A DNA stretch of 64,000 bases from an uncultured delta proteobacterium. GTDB taxonomy: Bacteria; Desulfobacterota; RBG-13-43-22. The DNA lies in NCBI GenBank assembly GCA_963843145.1, contig CAWJJC010000022.1:96001-160000 (forward strand), written 5' to 3'. A program made the position numbers and the translations under genes. The notes beneath the pieces are model-generated. The model ran no database searches, had not been told where the DNA came from, and saw nothing but the letters and a program-made list of their open reading frames with translations. How positions within the stretch are numbered: position 1 is the first letter of the stretch; every line of letters starts with the position of its first letter. Of this stretch, positions 9,061 to 64,000 are shown piece after piece.

Positions 9061-10482
9061 TTAGGAAGAAACCTGCCGGGGCTTCTCTTCCAGCCCGTAT
9101 TTCCATTTTAAAAACTGTTCGCCGGTAGTGGGATAGAGGGCATAGATGAGCAGGTCAAAGTCGTCCTTGGCCAGGTCCCCGATTTTAGCGCGGGCCTCGT
9201 CCAGTTCCGGTTCCAGGTAGTCGGCCGCCCGCCCGGTAACCGGGGTCTGGCCCCGCTTGTAGTTTTTCAGGACCAGTTTCTGCACTTCAGGGTCAATGGG
9301 GGTGGGGGTTTTACCATAGAGGCCGAAGACCAGATCTTTGACTTGATTGGTGACCATCTTGTATTTTCCTAAAAGAACATTCAGGACGGCCTGGACCCCC
9401 ACGATCTGGGAGGTGGGAGTGACCAGGGGAGGCGTGCCTAATTCCTTGCGGGTTTTGGGTACCTCGGCATAGACCTCGTTCAGCCGATCCAGGGCCTTGG
9501 CTTCCTTTAACTGGCTGACCAGGTTGGAGATCATGCCGCCCGGGACCTGGTGGACCAGGACCGCCGTGTCGATCACCGACATGCGGTTGGTGGCCAGGTA
9601 TTCCTTATACTTAGGAGCTATGGTTTCCAGATATTCATCCATCTCGATCAGGGCATTCAAGTTCATTCCGGGATCCCGGGGAGTTCCTGCCAGCGCGGCC
9701 ACAATGGGTTCAATGGCCGGCTGGGAAGTCCTTAAAGCAAAAGGGGCCAGGCAGGTATCGATGATATCGACACCGGCTTCAATGGCCTTGAGATAGGTCA
9801 TGGAGGCCATGCCGCTGGTATAATGGGTGTGCAAATGGATGGGGATGGTGATGTTCTTTTTGAGCTCCGAAATCAACCAGGCGATATCGTAAGGAGCCAT
9901 AATGCCGGCCATGTCCTTGATGCAGAGGGTATCGGCGCCCATCGCTTCCAGCTCCTTGGCCTTATTCACGTAATAGTCCATGTTGAAGACCGGACCGCCC
10001 AGGGTTTTTTCCGTCAGGGAATAACAGATGGCCGCCTGAAAATGCTTGCCGTTGGCCTTGATCCGCTCCACACAGGTCTCGAAGTTTCGAAAATCATTCA
10101 AGGCGTCGAATACTCGGAAAATATCCATGCCGGCTTCACAGGTTTTGTCCACGAAGAGACGGCAGACATCATCGGCGTAGTTGCGGTATCCCACCAAATT
10201 TTGGCCCCGCAGAAGCATGGTCAGGGGAGTCTTCTTAATATGCTTTTTTAGGGTACGCAACCGGTCAAAGGGATCTTCGGCCAAGAAGCGGTGCATGGTG
10301 TCAAAGGTCGCACCGCCCCAGACTTCCATGGCCCAAAAGCCCATTTCATCCATCCGCTCGGCAATGGGCAGCATGTCTTCGAGGCGCATTCGGGTAGCCA
10401 GCAAAGACTGGTGGCCGTCCCGCAGGGTGTTGTCCTGAATTTTAATCGGGTTCTTCGGCCCATCCATAAACATATGATGCAT
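9061..10482 (-). CDS. Pyruvate carboxylase subunit B / oxaloacetate decarboxylase alpha-like carboxyltransferase (no biotinyl domain)
   Basis: LRDGHQSLLATRM, EVWGGATFD, IKDMAG, HLHTH, QVPGGMISN, PLVTPTSQIVG; no AMKM biotin motif. Confidence 0.9.
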   Translation of the reverse strand: MHHMFMDGPKNPIKIQDNTLRDGHQSLLATRMRLEDMLPIAERMDEMGFWAMEVWGGATFDTMHRFLAEDPFDRLRTLKKHIKKTPLTMLLRGQNLVGYRNYADDVCRLFVDKTCEAGMDIFRVFDALNDFRNFETCVERIKANGKHFQAAICYSLTEKTLGGPVFNMDYYVNKAKELEAMGADTLCIKDMAGIMAPYDIAWLISELKKNITIPIHLHTHYTSGMASMTYLKAIEAGVDIIDTCLAPFALRTSQPAIEPIVAALAGTPRDPGMNLNALIEMDEYLETIAPKYKEYLATNRMSVIDTAVLVHQVPGGMISNLVSQLKEAKALDRLNEVYAEVPKTRKELGTPPLVTPTSQIVGVQAVLNVLLGKYKMVTNQVKDLVFGLYGKTPTPIDPEVQKLVLKNYKRGQTPVTGRAADYLEPELDEARAKIGDLAKDDFDLLIYALYPTTGEQFLKWKYGLEEKPRQVSS

Positions 10483-10733
10483 TCCAATATCCTCCTTTAT
10501 ATCAAGGTAACTATCCGCGAATTCCCCGATTCGCCAGTTAATCTAAATTTACTTTAAAAAAGGAATGGCGTCAAGAAAGCGATTGATTTGGTTCTTAGTA
10601 TGTCTTTTGTCAGATGACACCCTGGACCTTTCAGGTTTCATCTCCCGATCACGCCCACGAGGTTTATAACCCGCAGAAGTTTTAACTCATTATTATTACA
10701 ATAAATTTATGTTCAAGGGGCGTCCAGTGCATG

Positions 10734-10749
10734 TGGCATAGATATTGCC
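10734..10749 (+). promoter_or_regulatory. Sigma-54 -24/-12 promoter
   Basis: TGGCAT-AGATA-TTGC (GG-N10-GC) about 60 bp before the USP start. Confidence 0.8.
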
Positions 10750-10807
10750 ACTGGGTAAGATGTTCAAAAATTTCGGGCAAGCGAATCCTATAAAAAGGAG
10801 GTTTTAT

Positions 10808-11221
10808 ATGAAAGTACTCGTGGCAACCGACGGCTCGGAACATTCGATGAAGGCCGTTCAAAAAGCCCTGGAGATGGCCCAGAAGGAAGGGGTACAGGTC
10901 ACCCTGATGTCCGTGGCCTATTTCTCCAAAGATGACTTCGATGACATGCCACCCAATATCCAGGACAAGCTGGAAGCCCAGGCGGCCGCGGCCTTAAAAA
11001 AAGCCAAGTCGGTCTTTGAGGCGCAAAAGATCCCCGTGGAAGCGGTGCTCGAAGCCGGGGTGGTGCCGGCCAATAACCTCCTCAGGCGGGCCGAGGAGGG
11101 CGAGTTTGATCTTATCCTGATCGGCAGCTCCGGGTTGACCGGGATCAAACGGGCGCTCATGGGCAGCACGGCGGCCAAGGTGGTGGCCCAGGCCCCTTGC
11201 AGCGTCATGGTCATCCGTTGA
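10808..11221 (+). CDS. Universal stress protein (USP)
   Basis: MKVLVATDGS...DLILIGSSG...LMGSTAAKVV...APCSVMVIR; AGGAGG RBS. Confidence 0.93.
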   Translation: MKVLVATDGSEHSMKAVQKALEMAQKEGVQVTLMSVAYFSKDDFDDMPPNIQDKLEAQAAAALKKAKSVFEAQKIPVEAVLEAGVVPANNLLRRAEEGEFDLILIGSSGLTGIKRALMGSTAAKVVAQAPCSVMVIR

Positions 11222-11321
11222 TATTTTCAGGGACGGTGATTTCAACCCTCGACGGCCGTCGTAGAAGAAAAAAAATTAACTAGTACCTATGGAAATAAAA
11301 AAAAGACAACGGAGGATAACG

Positions 11322-11615
11322 ATGAAGATTTGGACAAAGATCACCACTCTGATCACCGGCCTGCTTATCTTGTTTCCAGGCCTGGTTCTGGCGGCGGCCG
11401 AAAAGGCGGCCCCCCTGGTCATCGTGGCCGACACCCGGAAATTTACCGGCTGGGAGGCCTGGTGGACCAATCTCTACAATGAAAGTCATTTGTATTTTAC
11501 CTTGCTCACGGTGATCATCATTCCCCTGGTGGGAGTGATTTTTGGGACCATCGCCGACCTGGCCATGAGTCGTATCGGTCTCGACTTGAAGTCCAGGGAA
11601 TTAGCCGAACATTAA
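11322..11615 (+). CDS. DVU0150-like small membrane protein
   Basis: Signal peptide, IVADTR..GWEAWW.NLYNESH, one TM helix, GLDLKSRELAEH; sits upstream of a TauE gene as in the Desulfovibrio cluster. Confidence 0.75.
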   Translation: MKIWTKITTLITGLLILFPGLVLAAAEKAAPLVIVADTRKFTGWEAWWTNLYNESHLYFTLLTVIIIPLVGVIFGTIADLAMSRIGLDLKSRELAEH

Positions 11616-11707
11616 TTGATGGCCACTTCGGCTTCCGGCTCTCAGCGGAGATCGGGGAAGCGTTTTAGTCGAACGGATTAATAACTCTATTTTTAGGAGG
11701 TCACACT

Positions 11708-12760
11708 ATGGATTGGTTATATGTTCTCATGCCTATCGCCGGGGTCCAGATTTTCTGGCCCGGACTGATTATCCTCGGCGTGGGGGTCGGTGTCATTGGC
11801 GGGTTCTTCGGAATGGGCGGCGCCTGGATGGTAACGCCGGGCCTTAATATACTCGGTTTTCCCATGGCCTTTGCCATTGGCACCGATATCGCCCACATGG
11901 CCGGAAAATCCCTCATCGCCACCATGCGGCATGGCAAGTTCGGTAATGTGGATTATAAACTGGGATTGGTCATGCTGGTGGGCACGATAGTCGGATTTGA
12001 AGTGGGCGCCCAGATGGTCATGTGGCTGGAACGATTGGGCAAGGTGGAAGCGTATGTCCGCTATATGTATCTGGTCCTTCTGGCCCTGATCGCCTGGATG
12101 GTCTTCGCCGATGTGGCCAAGAAAAGGAGGAAAGAACGGGAGGCCAAAGCGGAGGGCAAAGAGATCGATCAAATGGCCACCGGCATCGAGTGGCACAAGA
12201 CCCTTCATAAGCTCAAGATCCCCCCGATGGTCCATTTCAAAGTGGCCCAGATCTATTGCACTGCCTGGTTGCCCATTCTGGTGAGCTTCTTGACCGGCTG
12301 GCTGGCCGGGATCCTGGGCATCGGTGGTGGCTTGATCCGCATGCCGGCCTTGATCTATTTTGTCGGCTGCCCTACCCATGTGGCGGTGGGAACGGACCTG
12401 TTTGAGGTTATGATTTCCGGTCTTTACGGGGCCGCCACCTATACCTATAAGGGGCGGACGGAACTGGTGGCGGCGATTATCATGCTGGTCGGCGCAGCGA
12501 TCGGGGCCCAGGTGGGCACCGTGGCCACCAAATATATTAAAGGTTACGGGATTCGCATCATTTTCGGGTTGGCCGTTATCGGCTGCGCGGTTTCCATTGT
12601 GTTAAAGTTGATTGCCAAGGCAACTGCCGGCATGACCCAAATCATCTTTGATGACGCTTCTACGGTCCTGGTACTGGGCCTGGTGGGGGCCATGTCGCTC
12701 TATATTATTGTTAAAATGGTTCAGGGCGCCAAGCAGGAATTGGCCTCTAAAAAAAGATAA
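11708..12760 (+). CDS. TauE/SafE (TSUP) family membrane transporter
   Basis: GGFFGMGGAW...AIGTD and GILGIGGG...AVGTD repeats. Confidence 0.9.
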   Translation: MDWLYVLMPIAGVQIFWPGLIILGVGVGVIGGFFGMGGAWMVTPGLNILGFPMAFAIGTDIAHMAGKSLIATMRHGKFGNVDYKLGLVMLVGTIVGFEVGAQMVMWLERLGKVEAYVRYMYLVLLALIAWMVFADVAKKRRKEREAKAEGKEIDQMATGIEWHKTLHKLKIPPMVHFKVAQIYCTAWLPILVSFLTGWLAGILGIGGGLIRMPALIYFVGCPTHVAVGTDLFEVMISGLYGAATYTYKGRTELVAAIIMLVGAAIGAQVGTVATKYIKGYGIRIIFGLAVIGCAVSIVLKLIAKATAGMTQIIFDDASTVLVLGLVGAMSLYIIVKMVQGAKQELASKKR

Positions 12761-12799
12761 GGGTCAATTAGAAACCTAAAGCAAAAGGAGAAAAGCGTT

Positions 12800-13393
12800 A
12801 TGCTGAAAAAATATTGTGGGTTGACTCTGCTGGTGCTCCTGCCTTTGATCCTGGCCTACGGCTGCGGAGAAATGGGTAAAGTGGACCAGGGTCGGGTTAT
12901 TGAATTCGACAAAGCCAAAGGGACGGTCACCCTGATCCAGGATATGAAAGCCGATCCTAAAAACCCGGATTACAACCATCTGCCGCCCGTGACCTATGAA
13001 ATTCCCAAGGATCCGGCTGAGATGGGCCCGGAACCCAAGGCCGGGTGGCGAATGAAGCTGGATGCCAAAGCCAAACAGATCATTATTTTCGATCCGGCCT
13101 CTCAGAATTTCAAAAAAATCGACTATACCCTCATCGACCAGAAGGAAGGGGTGGATGCCGAAAACCCTTTAGTCAAGGATAAGAAATTCCCGCTGGTGGA
13201 AAAGGAGAAGAAGGCCATCACCCTCTACTCCAAGAGACAAAAGCTTTTGACCACCTTCAGCGTCCCGGATGAGTATTTCGCCCTTCCGGACGGCGCCTGG
13301 GATGCGGGCGACGAGGTGCGGATTTATTATAAGGAGACCGGGAAGGCCCGGCGTTTCATGAATATCAGCAAGACCAATATTTATAAGAAATAG
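12800..13393 (+). CDS. Lipoprotein (DUF4881-like)
   Basis: Lipobox-like LAYGC; conserved position after TauE in deltaproteobacterial clusters (family name recalled, not searched). Confidence 0.7.
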   Translation: MLKKYCGLTLLVLLPLILAYGCGEMGKVDQGRVIEFDKAKGTVTLIQDMKADPKNPDYNHLPPVTYEIPKDPAEMGPEPKAGWRMKLDAKAKQIIIFDPASQNFKKIDYTLIDQKEGVDAENPLVKDKKFPLVEKEKKAITLYSKRQKLLTTFSVPDEYFALPDGAWDAGDEVRIYYKETGKARRFMNISKTNIYKK

Positions 13394-13419
13394 CCGTCCC
13401 GGCTCCGGTAGTGCCAGAG

Positions 13420-13454
13420 GATCGCCGGGGGATCCGAGGGGCCCCCTGGCGATC
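13420..13454 (+). terminator. Hairpin / possible terminator or mRNA stabiliser
   Basis: GATCGCCGGGGG...CCCCCTGGCGATC followed by TTCTT. Confidence 0.5.
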
Positions 13455-13528
13455 TTCTTGCTTAATGACGAGTTTATTGGTTTAATGATGATTCAAATTT
13501 TTCTAGCCAGGAAGCGAACGGTCTGACG

Positions 13529-13738
13529 ATGAATATTCAACAAAAAATAGGTGTAGCCGTACTGGATGTACTGATATTGATCGATTTGGGAATCGGTATG
13601 TATCGGGCCAACAAGACCCCTGATTTATTCACTCCGATTTTTTTCAAGACCTTTTTTGTCCTGGTCATCCCCACCCTGCTCGTGGCCTGGATAGTCATTA
13701 AAATGCTCAGGACCATCGAAGCTTCACCAAGCGTATGA
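13529..13738 (+). CDS. Small two-TM membrane protein
   Basis: 69 aa with two hydrophobic segments; ATGA overlap with the next gene. Confidence 0.75.
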   Translation: MNIQQKIGVAVLDVLILIDLGIGMYRANKTPDLFTPIFFKTFFVLVIPTLLVAWIVIKMLRTIEASPSV

Positions 13739-14523
13739 CCCTGGATCGGATTTCACGGTGGAGACGAGGGGCCGGAATTGCCGGCTCAATTTTTTGTCTC
13801 CTCAGCCTGCTGGCGGTCATAGACGCCCTGGTGGCCCGATTTAAGCAGCCGCTCAGTTTATTTCAAGTGCTTCCGGGGGCCGTCCTAGAGATCCAGGGGC
13901 CTCTGCGGGAGAAGGTAGACACCCCCGATAAACTGGCTTTTCAATGCGATTCCCGGGAAATCCGGATCCTTTTTGATGGAGTTCAGACCGGCTATTGGAT
14001 GGGGGGGTATCTCTGGCGGGGGCGTCTGGTCATCGGTCCTGAAACCCGTCCCGGTCTCTATACACTTAAGATCCTCGGTCCTGGAATGGCCGCCAGCCCA
14101 CCCTTCCCTCCTTTTCAGATCCGGGTATTCGGGGATGCGGATACGTATCGCCGGGCACTGCCTTCTCTTGTTCAAAGATACACGGGGGTTGTGCCCTGGG
14201 TGGCGGCGGTCTTCGCTTTTATCCCGGCCCTGGGATGCTTTGCCCTGGTTTTCTTTTTGTCCCAAAGAATAGAAGGCCTGCTGGCCGGGGAAGGGCGGGC
14301 GGAAATCTACCGGGTCCGTCAAACGGAGCGGGGTATCGAAATCTCCTTTGGCCTGGGCAGGGATCAGGGCTTGGAAGAAGGGACCCTGTTGAACCTGTTT
14401 GATGAAAAAGGCCAATCTCTGGGTACGGTAGAGGTCCAGACCTTAACCGCCGGAGATGCCGTGGCCCTAGCCGTCGAGGAGCAGGGGGTGCGCCCCGGCT
14501 ATTGGTTGGCTAAAATTAGCTAG
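13735..14523 (+). CDS. Hypothetical membrane protein
   Basis: 262 aa with two TM segments; coupled in the operon. Confidence 0.75.
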   Translation: MTLDRISRWRRGAGIAGSIFCLLSLLAVIDALVARFKQPLSLFQVLPGAVLEIQGPLREKVDTPDKLAFQCDSREIRILFDGVQTGYWMGGYLWRGRLVIGPETRPGLYTLKILGPGMAASPPFPPFQIRVFGDADTYRRALPSLVQRYTGVVPWVAAVFAFIPALGCFALVFFLSQRIEGLLAGEGRAEIYRVRQTERGIEISFGLGRDQGLEEGTLLNLFDEKGQSLGTVEVQTLTAGDAVALAVEEQGVRPGYWLAKIS

Positions 14524-14547
14524 CTGATCAACGGATGGAATAAGCGA

Positions 14548-16200
14548 ATGAAAGAGAAGGAATATCGCACTTTATGGTGGAAGATCGTCTTTACCACCCT
14601 GGGTTTCTCTCTGATCCCCTTGTTCGGTCTGGGGTTTACCATCTATTATCAGTTCAGCGTTTCGTACACCGCCAAGGTCATGGAGAACCTGAAAACCCTG
14701 GCGGAAAACCGCCGCAGCGCCATGGACCTTTTTTTTGACGAACGGATCTCCCAGTTGGTCACCATGGCCCATACCCACTCGATCAAGCAATTGGCCGATG
14801 AAAATTACCTCAACAGAGTCTTTAATATCATGCAAACCCGATCCAAATCCTATATCGATATCGGGGTTATTGATCAGGAAGGAAACCATTTGGCCTATGT
14901 GGGTCCCTATCCTGAACTCAAGGGCGTCAATTACCAAAAGGAAGACTGGTTTCAATCGGTCATGTCGGGCGGAGTATACATCAGCGACGTTTTTTTAGGT
15001 TTTCGAAAATACCCCCATTTTATTATTGCCGTGATGACTCGCGAAGGAAATCAGACTTGGATCCTGCGGGCGACCATTAACTCCGAAATCATCGACCAAG
15101 TTGTCCGGGCCGGCCAGATCGGGAAGAAGGGGGATGCCTTCATCGTCAATAAACGGAATATCTTGCAGACCGCACCCCGCTTCAGCGGGGAAATTTTCGG
15201 CCACCCCAAGACCCCGGATTTTTCCCGGGTGATCGAGAATCAAGTGGAGGAACAGTCCCTGGAAGGGGTAAGGGCCCTCTTTGCCGCTACGGTGATCAAT
15301 AATACCAAGTGGGTCCTGGTGATCAAGGAGGATCCCCAAGAACAGCTTACTCCACTATTGCGGGCCCGCTTTCTGGCCGCTTTTCTTTTATTGGCGGGCG
15401 TCTTGCTGATTATCGTCGGGACGATTGTTACTTCCCGCTTGATGATGAAAAGGCTGATTCAAATCGACCGGGAAAAAGCGGTGAGTGAGGATTTGGTCAT
15501 TCAGTCCAGCAAAATGGCAGCCCTGGGAAAAATGGCGGCTGGGATCGCCCACGAGATTAATAATCCCTTAGCCGTCATCGGCGAGAAAGCGGGCTGGATG
15601 AAAGACCTGCTGACTGAAGAAGATATCTCGCGAAGTGAAAATTTCAAGGAGTTTGAAGATTCCATCCGCAAGATTGAGTACCACGTGGAACGGGCTAAAA
15701 AAGTCACCCATCGTCTCTTAGGGTTTGCCCGAAGAATGGAACCGCTTCAGGAAACCGTGGATGTGAACAAAACTTTGGACGAAACCATCGATTTTCTGAA
15801 AAACGAGTCCCGGTATCGCAATATCGACCTTCAAACCGACTTCTTCCCTGATTTGCCGAATATTACCAGTGATTCCTCTCAGTTACAGCAAGTCTTTTTA
15901 AACATCCTGAACAATGCCATCGATGCCATCGGCAAGAATGGGATGGTGATGATAAAAACCAGATTCCTCCCCAAAAATAGTGAACTTTCTGTTGAAATTA
16001 CGGATAATGGCCCGGGAATCCCTAAGGAGATGGTAGCCAAAATTTTTGATCCTTTTTTTACGACCAAGGAAGTGGGCAAGGGAACGGGCCTGGGTCTATC
16101 CATTGTTTTCAGCATACTGGAAAAACTGGGGGGAAGAATCATGGTGGCCAGCGAAGAGGGGAAAGGCACTACCTTTACGATTTATCTTCCGACCAAGTAA
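14548..16200 (+). CDS. Cache-domain sensor histidine kinase (NtrB-like)
   Basis: AHEINNPL H-box, [28 protein letters not shown]. Confidence 0.95.
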
Positions 16201-57624: not shown

Positions 57625-60425
57625 ATGGCGAAATCTTCGGCCCGGAGTAAGAATGAAAGAAAGGATGAAAAACAGTGGGTATATTTGTTTGATAACCTGG
57701 AGGCGGTGGAGGCCCATCTGCAGCCCAAGAGCTGGGACGAGGTGAAGGGTCTGTTGGGCGGAAAGGGAGCCAACCTGTTTGAGATGACCCGCCTGGGCCT
57801 TCCGGTTCCGCCCGGATTTACCGTCACCACCAAGGCCTGCAACGCCTATCTGGACCACGAGCGGAAGTTCCCTCCCGGCCTCTGGGAACAGGAGATGGCC
57901 GCTCTGCGCCATCTGGAGGAAAAAACCGGTAAACGCTTTGGGGATCCAACCCGCCCGCTTTTTGTTTCCTGCCGCTCCGGCGCCAAGTTTTCCATGCCCG
58001 GCATGATGGACACAGTGCTCAATATCGGTCTCAACGATGAAACCGCCCAAGGTCTGGTGGCGTTGACCAATGACCCGCGCTTTGTGTTTGACTCCTACCG
58101 ACGGCTGGTCCAGATGTTCGGGGTCGTGGTCCTGGGCGTTCCGGATGAACCGTTTGAAGTTTTTATTGAAAAAATGAAAAAGAGCCGGGGAGTACGTTTG
58201 GATGTGGAGTTGGAGGCCGAAGACTGGCTGCGCATTACCGCGCACTTTAAAGGGCAGATCATGTCCTATACCGGCCGGGAATTCCCCCAGGACCCCAGCG
58301 AGCAATTGGAAATGGCCACCCGCGCCGTATTCAACAGTTGGTTCGGCAAGCGGGCTGTGGATTACCGCAACGCCACCGGTATCCGCCACGACCTGGGCAC
58401 CGCCGTCAATATTCAGGCGGTAGTCTTTGGCAACATGGGCGAGAGCAGCGGGACGGGCGTGGCCTTCACCCGGAATCCGGTTAACGGGAACAAGGAACTC
58501 TATGGCGATTATTTGCTCAACGCCCAGGGCGAAGATGTGGTGGCCGGCATCCGCAACACCTCGCCCATACAAAACCTCCAGCGTGACCTGCCGGAGGTTT
58601 TCGCTGAGTTCGCCGCTATTTGTGAAAAGCTGGAAAGCCATTTCCATGAAATGCAGGACGTGGAGTTCACGATTGAAAACCGCAAACTCTGGATGCTGCA
58701 GACCCGGGACGGCAAACGCACCGCCCGGGCGGCCATCAAAATTGCCGTGGATATGGTCGAGGAAGGCCTGATCGACAAGAAAAAAGCGATCCTGCGCGTC
58801 AATCCCGAACAGGTGGACATGCTGCTCCACCCGCAGTTCAGCGCCGTCGCCAAGGAGCAGGCCCGGGTCGAGGGAAAGCGGCTGGTCCAAAAGGCCGTCA
58901 ATGCCAGCCCCGGCGCTGCCGTGGGCCAGGCTGTCTTTGATGCCGATACGGCGGAAAAATGGGGTAAGGAAGGCAAGGCGGTGATCATGGTCCGGCCGGA
59001 AACCAAGCCGGACGATGTCCACGGCATGATCGCTTCCAAAGGCATTCTTACCAGCCACGGCGGGGCGACCAGTCACGCCGCCGTGGTGGCTCGTCAATTC
59101 GGGACCCCGGCGGTCTGCGGGGCCGATGTGTTGACACATCGATGTGGAGCACCGGTTATTCACGGTCAAGAAGGAATCCATCATCGAGGTGCGGGAGGGG
59201 GACTGGATCAGCATCGACGGGGGGACCGGCGAGGTCTTCCTGGGCCAATTGGAAACCCAGGACCCGGATTTCGAACGCGAAACCGACCTGAACTTGCTGC
59301 TGACCTGGGCCGATGAGGTGCGCCGCCTGGGTGTCTGGGCCAACGCCGATTATCCCAAGGACGCCGAACGGGCCCGCCGCTATGGCGCCGAGGGCATTGG
59401 CCTCTGCCGGACCGAGCATATGTTCTTCGAGGAAGACCGACTGCCTATCGTCCAGGAGATGATCATGGCCACCAGCCGGGGGCGTCGGGTCCCCGCCCTG
59501 GCCAGACTGCTGCCCATGCAACGAAGCGATTTCGAAGGACTTTTCAAAGCCATGGACGGCCATCCGGTGATCATCCGGCTGCTCGACCCGCCCCTGCACG
59601 AGTTTCTGCCTGCCTACGACACCCTGGTGCAGGATCTGGCCGATCTAAAGGTCCGCATCCAGCACTATCATACCCTGAGCGAGATCGACCAGGCCTTGGC
59701 TGAGCTGCGCCAGAAGGAAGACATCCTCAACCGGGTCGAGGCCCTGAAGGAATCCAATCCCATGCTCGGCCTGCGCGGCGACCGCTTGAGCGTGGTCATG
59801 CCGGAGATCTCCGAAATGCAGATCCGGGCCATCCTGGAAGCGGCCGTCTGGGTCAAACGCGACGGCGTGGATGTCCATCCGGAAATCATGATCCCCCTGG
59901 CCAGTCACGTCAATGAATTGAAATTTATCAGGAAAATCGTGGATGCCACCGCCAAGGCCGTCTTTGAAGAAACGGGCCTGACGCGTCGATTTCAGATACG
60001 GCACCATGATCGAGGTGCCGCGCGCCGCCCTGACGGCCGACGAAATGGCCGGGGAAGCGGAATTCTTCAGTTTCGGGACCAACGACCTGACCCAGACCAC
60101 CTTCGGCATCAGCCGGGACGACGCCGAGGCCAAATTCCTGATCAAATATGTGGAGGATGGAATCCTGCCCCAGAACCCCTTTCAGCAATTGGACATCCAG
60201 GGCGTCGGCAAGCTGATCGAGATGGCGGTGGCCGGTGGACGACGGGTGCGGCCGGACCTGCAGGTGGGCATCTGCGGTGAACACGGCGGCGATCCCCAAA
60301 GCATCGCCTTCTGCCACCGGATGGGACTGAACTATGTGAGCTGCAGTCCCTTCCGGGTACCCATCGCCCGTCTGGCGGCGGCCCACGCGGCCCTCAAAGA
60401 AGAGTACCTAAAGGATAGCCATTGA
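57625..60425 (+). CDS. ppdK: Pyruvate, phosphate dikinase (frameshifts near 59135 and 59985)
   Basis: [61 protein letters not shown] spread over three overlapping ORFs. Confidence 0.96.
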
Positions 60426-60901: not shown

Positions 60902-61552
60902 TTAAAAAGCTCCCGGGGAAAAAGCTAGAAGGAATTGGCCGGCGTAATACAGGGGAAGCCCGATCAGGCGGTTGAAAAATGTCTTTCTAATGAATTGATC
61001 GCGGGCCACAAAAAGATCCGAGAGGTAAAACAGGATGGCCCCCCAGAAAAGCAAGGCCTTTCCCGTCCAGGGCAAGTCAGGCCTTTCGAAAACCGCCCAG
61101 GCCCCGAAGACCATCAGCGTAATGACCGCCACATAAGCCAGAACCGGAAGCTTCATGGCCCCCAGATGGGGCCAAAGCCAGCGGCAGATCCCCAGACTGA
61201 CAGCGAGAACAAGAACGTCCCCGGGAGAAAACCAGCCCTTGAAAGGGATCAGGAAAGTGAAGGCCAGGATATAGAGCACATGGCCGAGCAGGAAAGCCAC
61301 CAATCCTGCCCTAAACCACTTCAGCCCCGAAAAAGCTAAGCAAACATCCCCTACCAAGCAAAAGATTAACCCCAGAGTCAAATATCGGGTGAATGCTTCG
61401 TTGGCGCCCGGTTGAAGAAAAACCGTGATCACAAAAAGAAGGGACAGCAAAGACTTGGTCACGATTCGGCCAAAGGGTTGTCCCATTTTTTCATAATAAA
61501 GAAGGACGATCAGCAAAAGGACCCCTAAGCCCGGAATAAGAAAATGTCCCAT
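60902..61552 (-). CDS. YhhN family lysoplasmalogenase-like membrane protein
   Basis: GDVCL, FLLGHVLYI, FYLSDLF, YYAGQ. Confidence 0.9.
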   Translation of the reverse strand: MGHFLIPGLGVLLLIVLLYYEKMGQPFGRIVTKSLLSLLFVITVFLQPGANEAFTRYLTLGLIFCLVGDVCLAFSGLKWFRAGLVAFLLGHVLYILAFTFLIPFKGWFSPGDVLVLAVSLGICRWLWPHLGAMKLPVLAYVAVITLMVFGAWAVFERPDLPWTGKALLFWGAILFYLSDLFVARDQFIRKTFFNRLIGLPLYYAGQFLLAFSPGAF

Positions 61553-61656
61553 ACTTTCCCTTCAATGGATGCTCGCCGGTATTGGATTCAAAGGCCTAAC
61601 CAAAAATAGTAGTCAGCGTTTTGAAACAACCAGGGCTTGGAGTCCGGCGGAGGGCA

Positions 61657-62549
61657 TTATGATTCCTCTTCCAGGTCCCTGACCACCTTCCGAACAATCT
61701 CGGGCAGGTCATTCAAGTCATGGGGCCGGATAAGGCGCCGAAAAGGGACTTCTTGGGCCAGTCGGGCGGAGTGCCGGAAGTGTAGCCGGTGGTTTTCCCC
61801 GGCTTTCAGGGAACGGAGGGTATAGGTATAACGAAGCAAGGCGATAACCGCTTCCGGCCGGCTAAGCGGTAGAAGTTCGATACCTCTGCCTTTTTCAAGC
61901 AGGTAGACGCGCTTCAGAGGAAAGGGCTCGAGTCGAAAAACCCTCAGGGACCCGAGGAGTAATCTTTTCTTCCAGGGGACTTCTTGGGGAAGATTTTTCC
62001 GAATCGAACCCCAAGGAGGCGGCCGTTTCCGGATAGCAGTTTTAAATGAGGAAAAGCCGGGCAGATCAGGGGGACGGCTTCATCGGTCCGGATAACCAGG
62101 ACGTCATCGGCAATGAGGGGATATTTGTCGCTAAAGGCCGCCGCCATGGTGGACTTGCCTTCACCGGAATGACCTAAAAAAGCCACCCCCTGGCCGTCAA
62201 TAGCCACGGCACTTCCGTGCAGAACGAGAAAACCTCGCAGAAAGGCCAGGGTCCCGAGCACATTGCCCAAGAGAAAAAGACGAAGCGAACCCTCGTCTAC
62301 CCCGGGGGCCGGATCAATAAGAATCTGGTTTCCGGCACGAATTAAAAAAGAGCCGATGCCGGCATAGGAAAAATAGGCTTCCCCATCTGTCACCCGTAGG
62401 GTTGTTTCCGAAAACCGGTCCAGGGTGCCGGCTTCATCCGGCCGAGGGAAAAGAATATCCACATCATATTTCCCCGCACTCCCCTCGATCAGTTCAGGAA
62501 GCTGAAGCTCAGAACGGATGGCCAAGCCAAAGGCCTGGTAGTAATACAA
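61657..62549 (-). CDS. HPr-kinase-like kinase of the lasso cluster (frameshift near 62035)
   Basis: YQAFGL.I.SE, LHGSAV, GHSGEGKST, IADD, PAFPHLKL; continues in a shifted frame into ORF 61657-61839. Confidence 0.85.
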
Positions 62550-62590
62550 ACTTATAACCTATTGTCCTCGGATTATCTCAAAGGTGCTGG

Positions 62591-62743
62591 TTAGACTGAC
62601 GTCGCTACCCGTCGCCCCAATTTTAAAACCTCCTTGTTAATCAGACTTTGCTCGGTGATCTTTTCCACGGATCCGTGAACGACCAATTCAGGCTTTTGGT
62701 AGGGTTTCTTTTCATTCTGGATTTGAAGGTTTTTTTCTTTCAT
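62591..62743 (-). CDS. Lasso peptide precursor A2 (50 aa; absent from the ORF track)
   Basis: AGGAG RBS; MKEKNLQIQNEKKPYQKPELVVHGSVEKITE-QSLINKEVLKLGRRVATSV with YxxPxL leader motif and Thr(-2). Confidence 0.85.
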   Translation of the reverse strand: MKEKNLQIQNEKKPYQKPELVVHGSVEKITEQSLINKEVLKLGRRVATSV

Positions 62744-62849
62744 TTTCTTTCTCCTTTGTTTTTCGAAATCATCCCGGATTAGGTCCGGGATCCATGAAGT
62801 TTTCCTGTCGAAACCCCAAGGCTCTCACAGGATTAGGGAAAGCTCAGGG

Positions 62850-63005
62850 CTAAACGGTGATGGACGCAGTAACCGCGTTGGTTTTAAAACCTTCGCGGTT
62901 AATCAGACTTTGTTCGGTGATTTTTTCCACGGATCCGTGAACGACCAATTCGGGTTTTTGGTACGGCTTCTTTATCTTTTCGATCAAAATCTCTTTTTCC
63001 TTCAA
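62850..63005 (-). CDS. Lasso peptide precursor A1 (51 aa, TTG start)
   Basis: MKEKEILIEKIKKPYQKPELVVHGSVEKITE-QSLINREGFKTNAVTASITV; purine-rich RBS before TTG 63005. Confidence 0.87.
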   Translation of the reverse strand: MKEKEILIEKIKKPYQKPELVVHGSVEKITEQSLINREGFKTNAVTASITV

Positions 63006-63029
63006 CTTTTGTCCCCCCTTATTTTTCGT

Positions 63030-63106
63030 CGTCATCCCGGACTTGCTTCGGGATCCAGGAAGCTCAGCCCCGTACTGGGATCCGGCCATCGCCAGCCAGA
63101 ATGATG
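63030..63106. repeat. CGTCAT-type REP-like element (a degenerate half-copy lies at 62769-62794)
   Basis: CGTCATCCCGGACTTGCTTCGGGATCCAG...CTGGGATCC...GAATGATG. Confidence 0.6.
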
Positions 63107-63186
63107 ACCTGATTAAACCAGATAATAACCTATTTTCACGCTTCCTGGGTACCCGATGCGGATATCGGGATATTATCCAAATTGGA

Positions 63187-63624
63187 TTACCTTTTGCGAA
63201 ACTCCAGATCCCCCAGGGTTGGAAACGCGGTATATGGTTCAACCGCTCCTCCGAGCAGCACCATCCCCTGGGATTCCAGCCAGGCGTGGGCCTTCACCCG
63301 CTTTTCGGTTTCGTCCTTCAATACCCCGATGCGCAGGTCCGTCTGATGTCCATGTCGAGCCAGAAAGGCTTGCCCGGCTATGGCCCGCACCAGGCAGGTG
63401 GCCCGGGGCACATTTCTCCCGGCGGTATCCATTGCCCCGAGCAACCGATTCAGTGGAAATGAAGCCGGTCCTCGTTTGATCGGAGCCCGCTTGATCAGGG
63501 TCAGCATCGTCCGGAAAGGAAGAAGCCACAAACCGCATTTTACTCCCCAGACGAACAGCAATGCTTTTATCAAAAGTCCCTTTTCGGGTAAAGGCAGTTT
63601 TAGAAAATTATGCACCTTTTTCAT
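63187..63624 (-). CDS. Lasso peptide leader peptidase B2 (transglutaminase-like)
   Basis: ATCLVRAIA...LRIGV...AHAWLE catalytic Cys/His pattern. Confidence 0.92.
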   Translation of the reverse strand: MKKVHNFLKLPLPEKGLLIKALLFVWGVKCGLWLLPFRTMLTLIKRAPIKRGPASFPLNRLLGAMDTAGRNVPRATCLVRAIAGQAFLARHGHQTDLRIGVLKDETEKRVKAHAWLESQGMVLLGGAVEPYTAFPTLGDLEFRKR

Positions 63625-63910
63625 CGGTACACTCGATCAGGCCGTTGGCCAAAAGGGTCTTCATTAATTCGACTAAATCCCGCTCACATTGATCGGGCTT
63701 CACCTGGTATTCCTCGAGAATTCGATCCCTGAGGCTACTTACTTTAATCGGTTTTTGAATTGAATTCCAGATAAAATTTCCCAGGGAGTTCATTCCATAG
63801 TACATCCCGGCTTTCAGGGCTAGAATAACCGATTCCCCGCCCAAGTCGCACGAGACCTGGTCTTGAACAGCGACTACGGTTTGAGATATGAAGGGATCAT
63901 CCTGCAGCAT
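63608..63910 (-). CDS. PqqD-family RiPP recognition element (lasso B1)
   Basis: QVSCDLGGESVIL...YYGMNSLG.FIW...EEYQV..DQCERDL..L...GLI; overlaps B2. Confidence 0.92.
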   Translation of the reverse strand: MLQDDPFISQTVVAVQDQVSCDLGGESVILALKAGMYYGMNSLGNFIWNSIQKPIKVSSLRDRILEEYQVKPDQCERDLVELMKTLLANGLIECTDEKGA

Positions 63911-64000
63911 GGCGACGCTCCATCAAAATGTAACCTTACGTTTTCCAAAATAACCAAATGATTTTTGTATTAAACCCCCATGCCCGCGGGGGCCCCACGA

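Follow-up and report, generated by a model that had tools for sequence, protein, structure and literature searches.

A cyclase-less cluster of lasso-type genes in an uncultured delta proteobacterium and its predicted linear, probably phosphorylated peptide product

Genes at the locus

The DNA analyzed here is a stretch of 64,000 nucleotides (the window; G000:C22:96001-160000) on a 502-kb contig, C22, of its source genome, G000, from an uncultured delta proteobacterium. Between positions 61657 and 63910 the minus strand carries five genes of the type that make lasso peptides, a group of ribosomally synthesized and posttranslationally modified peptides (RiPPs): a recognition element (B1), a leader peptidase (B2), two precursors (A1 and A2), and a kinase (K). 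A first-pass annotation had described this set and had read it as a lasso peptide cluster with Gln1-Glu7 rings. All five genes lie where it had placed them, and their identities were backed by Pfam and NCBIfam scans, as follows.

63608..63910, minus strand: B1, a discrete PqqD-type RiPP recognition element (RRE) of 100 amino acids (PF05402, E 5.3e-16)
63187..63624, minus strand: B2, a transglutaminase-like Cys-His leader peptidase of 145 amino acids (PF13471, Transglut_core3, E 6.4e-18)
62850..63005, minus strand: precursor A1, 51 codons, TTG start, leader ...KKPYQKPELVVHGSVEKITE, core QSLINREGFKTNAVTASITV
62591..62743, minus strand: precursor A2, 50 codons, the same leader (KKPYQKPELVVHGSVEKITE), core QSLINKEVLKLGRRVATSV
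61657..62549, minus strand: HPr-kinase-like peptide kinase, interrupted (PF07475, E 1.8e-5, under the gathering score)

The start of B2 overlaps the stop of B1 by 17 nucleotides. On the NCBIfam models for the lasso proteins, B2 scored 71.6 bits (lasso_biosyn_B2, NF033537; cut-off 33), and B1 scored 73.3 bits, slightly under the cut-off of 80 (lasso_PqqD_Bac, NF033536). Cys77 and His113 of B2 did not vary among 12 aligned B2 proteins. The B1 orthologues of two congeners, G003 and G004, were 85% and 72% identical to the window protein over the alignment, and after these the nearest match found was the B1 of locus L056, described below, with 49% identity.

The TTG start of A1 is preceded by AAGGGGGG, a ribosome-binding site. 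A1 and A2 have PYQKPELVVHGSVEKITE in common, after which A1 continues with QSLINREGFKTNAVTASITV and A2 with QSLINKEVLKLGRRVATSV. The shared leader noted in the first pass was thus confirmed, and it fits the lasso register Y(-17)xxP(-14)xL(-12)xxxG(-8)xxxxxT(-2)x; A2 reached 19.8 bits on the NCBIfam model lasso_leader_L3 (NF033521; cut-off 19). The cleavage predicted earlier, after Glu(-1) and two residues past Thr(-2), agrees with this register. Both cores have a Glu at position 7.

The kinase was correctly recognized in the first pass, which had not noticed that it is split over three frames and is not a single open reading frame (ORF). The N-terminal piece of 201 amino acids (61944-62549) has an intact catalytic motif, and two more frames run down to position 61657. 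The three frames match residues 1-180, 165-209, and 179-295 of the intact 296-residue kinase of G003, and the break consists of two 1-bp insertions, near 62037 and 61932, relative to the intact 296-residue genes of G003 and G004. The motif H-x14-GxxGxGKS-x14-DD starts at His111 of the window fragment, and none of its residues varies in the kinases of G003 and G004. The H...GxxGxGKS...DD residues are listed as essential for BsfK, the kinase of the Bsf cluster of Bradymonas sediminis (PMC10368454). On Pfam Hpr_kinase_C the kinases scored only 21 to 26 bits, below the gathering score of 33.3.

Search for a lasso cyclase

Lasso peptides are defined by their cyclase, the gene for which the first-pass annotation expected beyond position 64000. 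The position of the window inside a 502-kb contig allowed it to be sought there, and a check of that flank found none in the next 12 kb, which are occupied by infA, a gene for an RNA recognition motif (RRM)-type RNA-binding protein, and the dcw genes mraZ, rsmH, ftsL, ftsI, murE, murF, mraY, murD, and ftsW. The opposite flank holds YhhN, a TM2-domain protein, and pyruvate phosphate dikinase (PPDK), and solely B1, B2, A1, A2, and K lie between YhhN and infA in G000.

No lasso cyclase was found elsewhere either, in G000, G003, or G004 with PF00733 and NF033535, or in G000 by tblastn with 10 cyclases from the phylum. The first-pass annotation had itself named such an absence as refuting its proposal, and the result holds within the limits of three metagenome-assembled genomes (MAGs) that are 97.9, 90, and 94% complete with 3 to 7% contamination (6.9% in G000). 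As positive controls, three kinase-adjacent cyclases of the phylum scored 731, 767, and 633 bits on NF033535.

PF00733 matched G000 at two places, a 630-residue enzyme on contig C21 and, weakly, a site on C22 outside the window. The C21 enzyme starts with MCGICGF, carries GATase_7 and GATase_6 domains, and scored 517.7 bits on TIGR01536 (cut-off 267.1) versus 301.6 bits on the lasso cyclase model NF033535 (cut-off 525); its neighbors are glycosyltransferase-like, radical-SAM, and methyltransferase-like genes. It is an ordinary glutamine-dependent, AsnB-type asparagine synthase. The ten phylum cyclases all have Ser, Ala, or Gly at their start, in place of the nucleophilic Cys of AsnB, and in the tblastn search they matched the C21 gene alone, at 22 to 31% identity. 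G003 and G004 each have only the AsnB orthologue and a QueC-like match in the asparagine synthase family.

Two side observations concern this family. The weak match on C22 is a 445-residue ORF (positions 862-2199 of L002, G000:C22:19392-22586) with a radical-SAM CxxxCxxC start, the match coming from its C-terminal part; by eye it could be a QueE-QueC fusion, whether a real fusion or a frameshift artifact. A fourth genome of the genus, G002, has a second asparagine synthase-family gene (L013/L016; G002:C6:126145-127258) with an in-frame TGA, which the other three genomes lack.

Searches with B2 and the kinase covered all 21 genomes of the Genome Taxonomy Database (GTDB) class and found the cluster in G000 and the congeners G003 and G004. 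In all three of the congeners in which the locus is assembled it is syntenic, between YhhN and infA. G004 has one precursor and every gene intact, and G003 has two precursors, an intact kinase, and a frameshifted B2. G002, 77% complete, lacks both the cluster and the infA-mraZ DNA beside it and is hence uninformative.

The cyclase is the rule in the wider phylum. Among 401 sampled genomes, 44 had a kinase match, 41 of them outside the three studied here, and 12 of the best-scoring kinase loci were taken from 11 of these 41. In 10 of the 12, a cyclase-type, asparagine synthase-like gene (610 to 648 amino acids) stands beside B1, B2, and K; one of the other two stops at a contig edge, and one (L056) has no cyclase. 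The leader of the cyclase-bearing locus L054, KKPYVTPELVVHGSVEKITE, is almost identical to that of the window, and its core starts with Glu. In L055, also cyclase bearing, the core starts with QAIPQKE, that is, with Gln1 and Glu7, and ends in Ser, and the cyclase scored 767 bits on NF033535. Since these cyclase-bearing loci share the leader or Gln1/Glu7, the window cluster appears to descend, through loss of the cyclase gene (C), from kinase-associated lasso clusters of the ordinary kind. L055 (G212:C1:390500-407899, positions 9322-13177) is a complete B1-B2-K-C-A lasso cluster and would be a better candidate for a Gln1-Glu7 lasso than the window locus; such rings are plausible in the cyclase-bearing relatives.

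L056 (G330:C6:167000-186999, positions 9357-14603) is a second cyclase-less cluster with B2 in the same phylum. Its order is A-K-ATP-binding cassette (ABC) exporter (MsbA-like)-425-residue gene (no NCBIfam match)-B1-B2, its core ends in Ser, and no cyclase lies within 10 kb. All three asparagine synthases of its genome, G330 (99% complete), are of the AsnB type, with 150 to 203 bits on NF033535 and 394 to 466 bits on TIGR01536. In trees of 16 kinases and 13 B1 proteins, 7 of 13 and 8 of 10 inner branches, respectively, were unresolved; the kinase of L056 grouped with that of the cyclase-bearing L059 (support 89/82) and not with the studied genus. Kinase scans of genome contigs returned two loci, G003 and a Bacteroidetes MAG with 24% identity, and scans of metagenome contigs returned one 1.8-kb contig.

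Precursor family and state of the genes

The precursor family comprises 41 distinct cores, made up of the 39 proteins that a search with the G003 precursor found, plus the G004 precursor and the G003 query itself. The 39 database proteins share the leader (E 1e-18 to 2e-7), and because of this, and of the same gene set at the same locus in two congeners, the precursors are not a chance set. The leader pattern [YFW]xxPx[LIVM]xxxGxxxxxTx occurs in 41 of 41 members, both window precursors included, and residue -1 is Glu in 40. The cores, 17 to 21 residues long, begin with Gln in 36 cases, Glu in 3, and Lys in 2, and 37 of the 41 have Ser or Thr at position 2 or 3. Asp or Glu, the potential ring acceptor, stands at positions 7 to 9 in 35 cores and is absent there in 6; two cores have no acidic residue anywhere.

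At the other end, 35 of the 41 cores have a C-terminal Val, and the five that end otherwise than in Val or Ala are longer read-throughs. Among the 36 cores ending in Val or Ala, residue -4 is Ser in 29, Thr in 1, and Tyr in 1, and Ser at -5 occurs in 4 more (35 of 36 in total), while none has Ser or Thr at -1. There is thus a C-terminal S-x-x-V motif within an otherwise hypervariable tail, to which the sole exception is A2 of the window. A2 is an outlier of the family, with VLK in place of the G[FLIS][KR] of 34 relatives and with no Ser at -4 or -5; the VLK departure amounts to two compensating 1-base differences, nine bases apart.

On L053, one of the cores without an acceptor (QISTNPGG...) adjoins a remnant of a main-type precursor and an intact kinase of 296 residues, and since both adjoin the same kinase, acceptor-less and Glu7 precursors share one enzyme set. 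With 6 of 41 cores lacking an acceptor, and no cyclase at the locus or in the three genomes, the Gln1-Glu7 macrolactam was not borne out, and the lasso claim for this locus should not be carried forward. The version of it in which a genuine lasso cluster is served by a cyclase elsewhere, or in unassembled or unbinned DNA, would account for the lasso-type leader, B1, and B2, and for the presence of Glu7 in A1, A2, and 35 of the 41 cores of the family; the Gln1/Glu7 core of the cyclase-bearing L055 and the fact that the genomes are MAGs also speak for it. We nevertheless judge it very unlikely, as it would have to accommodate, besides the acceptor-less cores, a cyclase missing beyond position 64000 and from all three genomes by the profile models (and from G000 by tblastn with 10 phylum cyclases) when the cyclase adjoins the kinase in 10 of 12 related loci.

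A ring could also be closed by an enzyme not homologous to the cyclase, for example by the P-loop, HPr-kinase-like protein, which might turn Glu7 into an activated acyl phosphate that the amine of Gln1 then attacks. P-loop ligases that form acyl phosphates exist. The kinase is the last ATP-using enzyme of the cluster, its catalytic motif is intact, and Gln1 and Glu7 are conserved though the cyclase is absent, points that would suit such a role; they have to be set against the 6 acceptor-less cores, one of them (on L053) beside an intact kinase of this very type. Every characterized homologue of the kinase, moreover, phosphorylates Ser hydroxyls in the accounts drawn on here (PMC8498205, PMC10368454, and PMC13381572). 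Closure by a nonhomologous enzyme seems highly improbable, and the specific proposal that the kinase replaces the cyclase through a Glu7 acyl phosphate, at any rate in the 35 of 41 precursors that retain Glu7, we regard as barely credible. If true, a kinase-made ring would be a second, nonhomologous route to lasso-like macrolactams. A further candidate, a transglutaminase-type Gln1-Lys10 cross-link made by B2, was dropped: position 10 is Arg in 10 of the 41 cores, and the homologues of B2 are proteases.

The question of whether the genes are maintained was addressed with dN/dS (the ratio of nonsynonymous to synonymous substitution rates), calculated by the Nei-Gojobori method with our own script for three kin genomes, the pairs of which are not independent. 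The ratio was 0.26 to 0.31 for B1 (dS 0.25 to 0.51), 0.28 for B2 against G004 (dS 0.47), 0.19 to 0.27 for the kinase (dS 0.31 to 0.55), and 0.11 to 0.14 for the precursor. The neighboring genes YhhN and infA gave 0.22 to 0.26 and 0.03 to 0.05, respectively. Leader residues are kept through synonymous changes among five precursor gene copies. By these sequence comparisons, the cyclase-less state is older than the split of G000, G003, and G004, and purifying selection has acted on the genes ever since.

These values speak against a decaying relic, that is, a former lasso cluster that lost its cyclase and whose other genes are drifting into pseudogenes, with no product made, at any rate by this strain. 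For B1, B2, and the kinase there are dN/dS values (0.19 to 0.31 over dS of 0.25 to 0.55) equal to that of YhhN, and the leader protein sequence is near-invariant despite the synonymous changes. Damage to individual genes is nevertheless present: the G000 kinase has its two 1-bp insertions, A2 deviates twice from the family consensus, B2 is frameshifted in G003, 7 of the 23 close kinases are shorter than 294 residues, and 5 of 41 precursors extend beyond the usual C-terminal Val. The damaged gene is not the same in each genome, and all genes are intact in G004. The nearby PPDK gene of G000 also has three similar 1-bp insertions, which suggests, and does not prove, a local assembly error. On balance, we consider a decaying relic unlikely.

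Several observations relate to the broken kinase frame. Among the 23 kinases with at least 70% identity, 16 have 294 to 296 residues and 7, including that of the window, are shorter. Sequencing run X1, the best match among the runs with a word share of 0.18, is more than 99% identical to the window, yet it covers only 62846-63119 and 63218-63480 (A1 and B2), so that same-strain reads do not reach the kinase insertions. Runs X2, X4, and X5 contain relatives that are mostly 88 to 99% alike, and the relatives in X4 and X5 are without the extra bases at about 61934 and 62036. The insertions in the kinase and in PPDK may thus be either a local assembly error or a real frameshift or pseudogene, which for the kinase would be a strain-specific loss. 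The PPDK gene (window 57625-60425, plus strand) is divided into three ORFs (563, 378, and 139 amino acids) by 1-bp insertions at 59136, 59982, and 60405 relative to G003. In 8.4 kb of dcw genes past position 64000 there are no 1-bp insertions relative to G003, and all of these genes are intact.

The locus also differs from its surroundings in divergence. Between G000 and G003 (L003 versus L009), the cluster is 87.8% identical and both flanks are about 97% identical, and dS is 0.25 to 0.75 for the cluster genes versus 0.11 to 0.12 for YhhN and infA; apparently the cluster is either exchanged or diverging faster than the DNA around it. Precursor number varies as well, with one in G004 and in the relatives in run X4 and two in G000 and G003.

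An Rfam scan of 61400-64000 gave 0 matches at E values up to 1, and promoter and terminator scans gave no excess over shuffled sequences (2 versus a mean of 2.0 and 7 versus a mean of 4.5). Two palindromic hairpins lie upstream of the precursors.

63032..63056, minus strand: palindromic hairpin, partial copy of a REP-like repeat, 26 nucleotides upstream of the A1 start codon
62769..62793, minus strand: palindromic hairpin, second partial copy, 25 nucleotides upstream of the A2 start codon

The REP-like palindrome consists of GGATCCCGG-N-CCGGGATGA and then a tail rich in A; it has no match in Rfam and occurs in 30 copies in G000 (28 of them elsewhere), mostly in intergenic DNA. This genome-wide repetition explains a spike of read depth at 63022-63100 in runs X4 and X5.

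Predicted product and comparison with known systems

We consider it probable, at roughly 0.6, that the locus encodes a lasso-derived RiPP pathway that lost its cyclase, was kept without it, and makes a linear, probably phosphorylated peptide. The gene content, the lack of a cyclase at the locus and in the three genomes, the purifying selection, the intact motifs, and the acceptor-less precursors come from the analysis itself; from these we infer the order of steps, the phosphorylation and its site, the linear product, and the pyroglutamate. In the proposed pathway, B1 would bind the YxxPxL motif of the leader, and the HPr-kinase-like enzyme would act before leader removal, phosphorylating a Ser of the precursor. 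The candidates, with no choice between them, are the core residue Ser2 or Ser3 and the conserved Ser in S-x-x-V at the C terminus. B1 would then present the Thr(-2)-Glu(-1) site to B2, which would free a linear core of 17 to 21 residues starting with Gln. An N-terminal Gln can cyclize to pyroglutamate, and with no ring closure the free Gln of this core could do so. For the A1 core, the calculated monoisotopic mass is 2148.154 in the linear form, 2131.127 in the pyroglutamyl form, and 2130.143 as a lasso (loss of H2O), and each phosphate adds 79.966.

The pathway is drawn by analogy with described systems. BsfK phosphorylates Ser3 of its core and is stimulated by BsfB1, and BsfB1 and BsfB2 remove the leader from both phosphorylated and unmodified precursor in vitro (PMC10368454). 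The clusters for linear polyphosphorylated peptides (LPPs) have an RRE, an HprK-like kinase, a leader peptidase, and no cyclase; in them, LppK polyphosphorylates Ser3 of the core, and the peptide stays linear since no cyclase is encoded (PMC13381572). Kinases of the paeninodin type act on a C-terminal Ser (PMC8498205).

A number of points weigh against a maintained linear pathway. Glu7 and an REGF motif are kept in 35 of 41 cores, and a linear product has no obvious need of them. Neither candidate Ser is universal, and the core of P0004 has no Ser or Thr at all. The cluster has no exporter or nucleotidyltransferase, unlike the LPP and Bsf clusters. The broken kinase and aberrant A2 of G000, together with the frameshifted B2 of G003, could be signs of decay in progress and not of assembly error. 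With MAGs for all three genomes, a cyclase could, strictly speaking, sit on an unbinned element; its absence covers G000, G003, and G004, with the contexts of the other approximately 35 family precursors lying outside the sample, and the contig of L053 is, at 1.8 kb, too short to show whether a cyclase is present or absent. The product and its phosphorylation, finally, are predictions from the genes.

Kinase-bearing lasso clusters from Gram-negative lineages are among the closest known systems. The Bsf cluster and loci L054, L055, and L062 share with the window B1, B2, the H...GxxGxGKS...DD kinase, and the YxxPxL leader; L054 shares the window leader almost letter for letter, and L055 shares Gln1/Glu7. 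They differ in encoding a lasso cyclase (633 to 767 bits on NF033535 for L054, L055, and L062), of which the window has none, and the Bsf cluster as described also has an ABC exporter and a nucleotidyltransferase, neither of which is in the window cluster (PMC10368454). Paeninodin-type clusters of Firmicutes are similar in that an HPr-kinase homologue modifies the linear precursor before the leader is removed, but there the target is a C-terminal Ser, in contrast to the C-terminal Val of 35 of the 41 cores here, and a cyclase is present (PMC8498205); their leaders are of the WxxP type (PMC13381572). L056 has a precursor, kinase, B1, and B2 and no cyclase, as does the window, and differs in its additional MsbA-like ABC exporter and 425-residue gene, in a core ending in Ser, and in a kinase that goes with that of L059.

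A functional parallel is the LPP family of Bacillota (lppA/K/B/S/D/N; Popov et al., Nat Commun 2026, PMC13381572), likewise descended from lasso clusters and without a macrolactam cyclase. These were the first cyclase-less derivatives described, in 2026, and were found through a signal-peptidase-like leader protease (PMC13381572). The window cluster has the same combination of a missing cyclase, an RRE, and an HprK-like kinase, the last intact in G003 and G004 and frame-broken in the window. Further likenesses in the published account are that the RRE is discrete, that the leader has a conserved YxxP, that the C termini are hypervariable, and that there are 1 to 3 precursors per cluster (PMC13381572). 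Aligned by eye, the LPP leader YxxPxVLxHQxIxFETxxS and YQKPELVVHGSVEKITEQS of the window have Y, P, H, T, and the final S in the same columns, and the final S of the LPP motif is the phosphorylated Ser3 (PMC13381572). That 37 of the 41 cores have Ser or Thr as their second or third residue is only compatible with LPP-type polyphosphorylation of Ser3.

The peptidase of the window cluster is a lasso-type Cys-His B2, whereas LPPs are defined by the SipW-like signal peptidase LppS; the cores of the window family have 17 to 21 residues, versus 45 in the LppA studied; and the host here belongs to an uncultured "delta proteobacterium" lineage, whereas LPPs are called restricted to Bacillota (PMC13381572). 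The nucleoside triphosphate (NTP) transferase and MsbA-like exporter of LPP clusters (PMC13381572) are both missing between YhhN and infA in G000, G003, and G004, and no archaeal-type signal peptidase I (LppS-like) lies between YhhN and infA, the remainder of the genome not having been searched for it. Because the SipW-like peptidase, NTP transferase, and exporter are absent, B2 is used, and the host is outside Bacillota, the cluster is not a member of the LPP family as defined, and because it has no cyclase, it is not a lasso cluster. In the literature searched, we found no description of a cyclase-less cluster of this B2 type; the supplementary tables of PMC13381572, which might list other forms, lay outside that search.

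Judged by its genes, then, the window cluster would work like an LPP cluster from outside that family as defined, and the locus would represent a second way in which lasso machinery survives the loss of its cyclase: in a "delta proteobacterium" genus of soils and sediments, purifying selection has retained the canonical B1/B2 pair and the kinase. Its enzymes appear to serve a family of short precursors, at least 41 in number, that diversifies fast and has a distinctive Gln1 ... S-x-x-V layout. If this is confirmed, mining rules that take B1, B2, and the leader as enough to call a lasso peptide mislabel such loci, and the cluster offers a natural test of B1/B2 function in vivo without a cyclase. 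Compared with the LPPs, it would also mean that linear phosphopeptide RiPPs reach beyond Bacillota.

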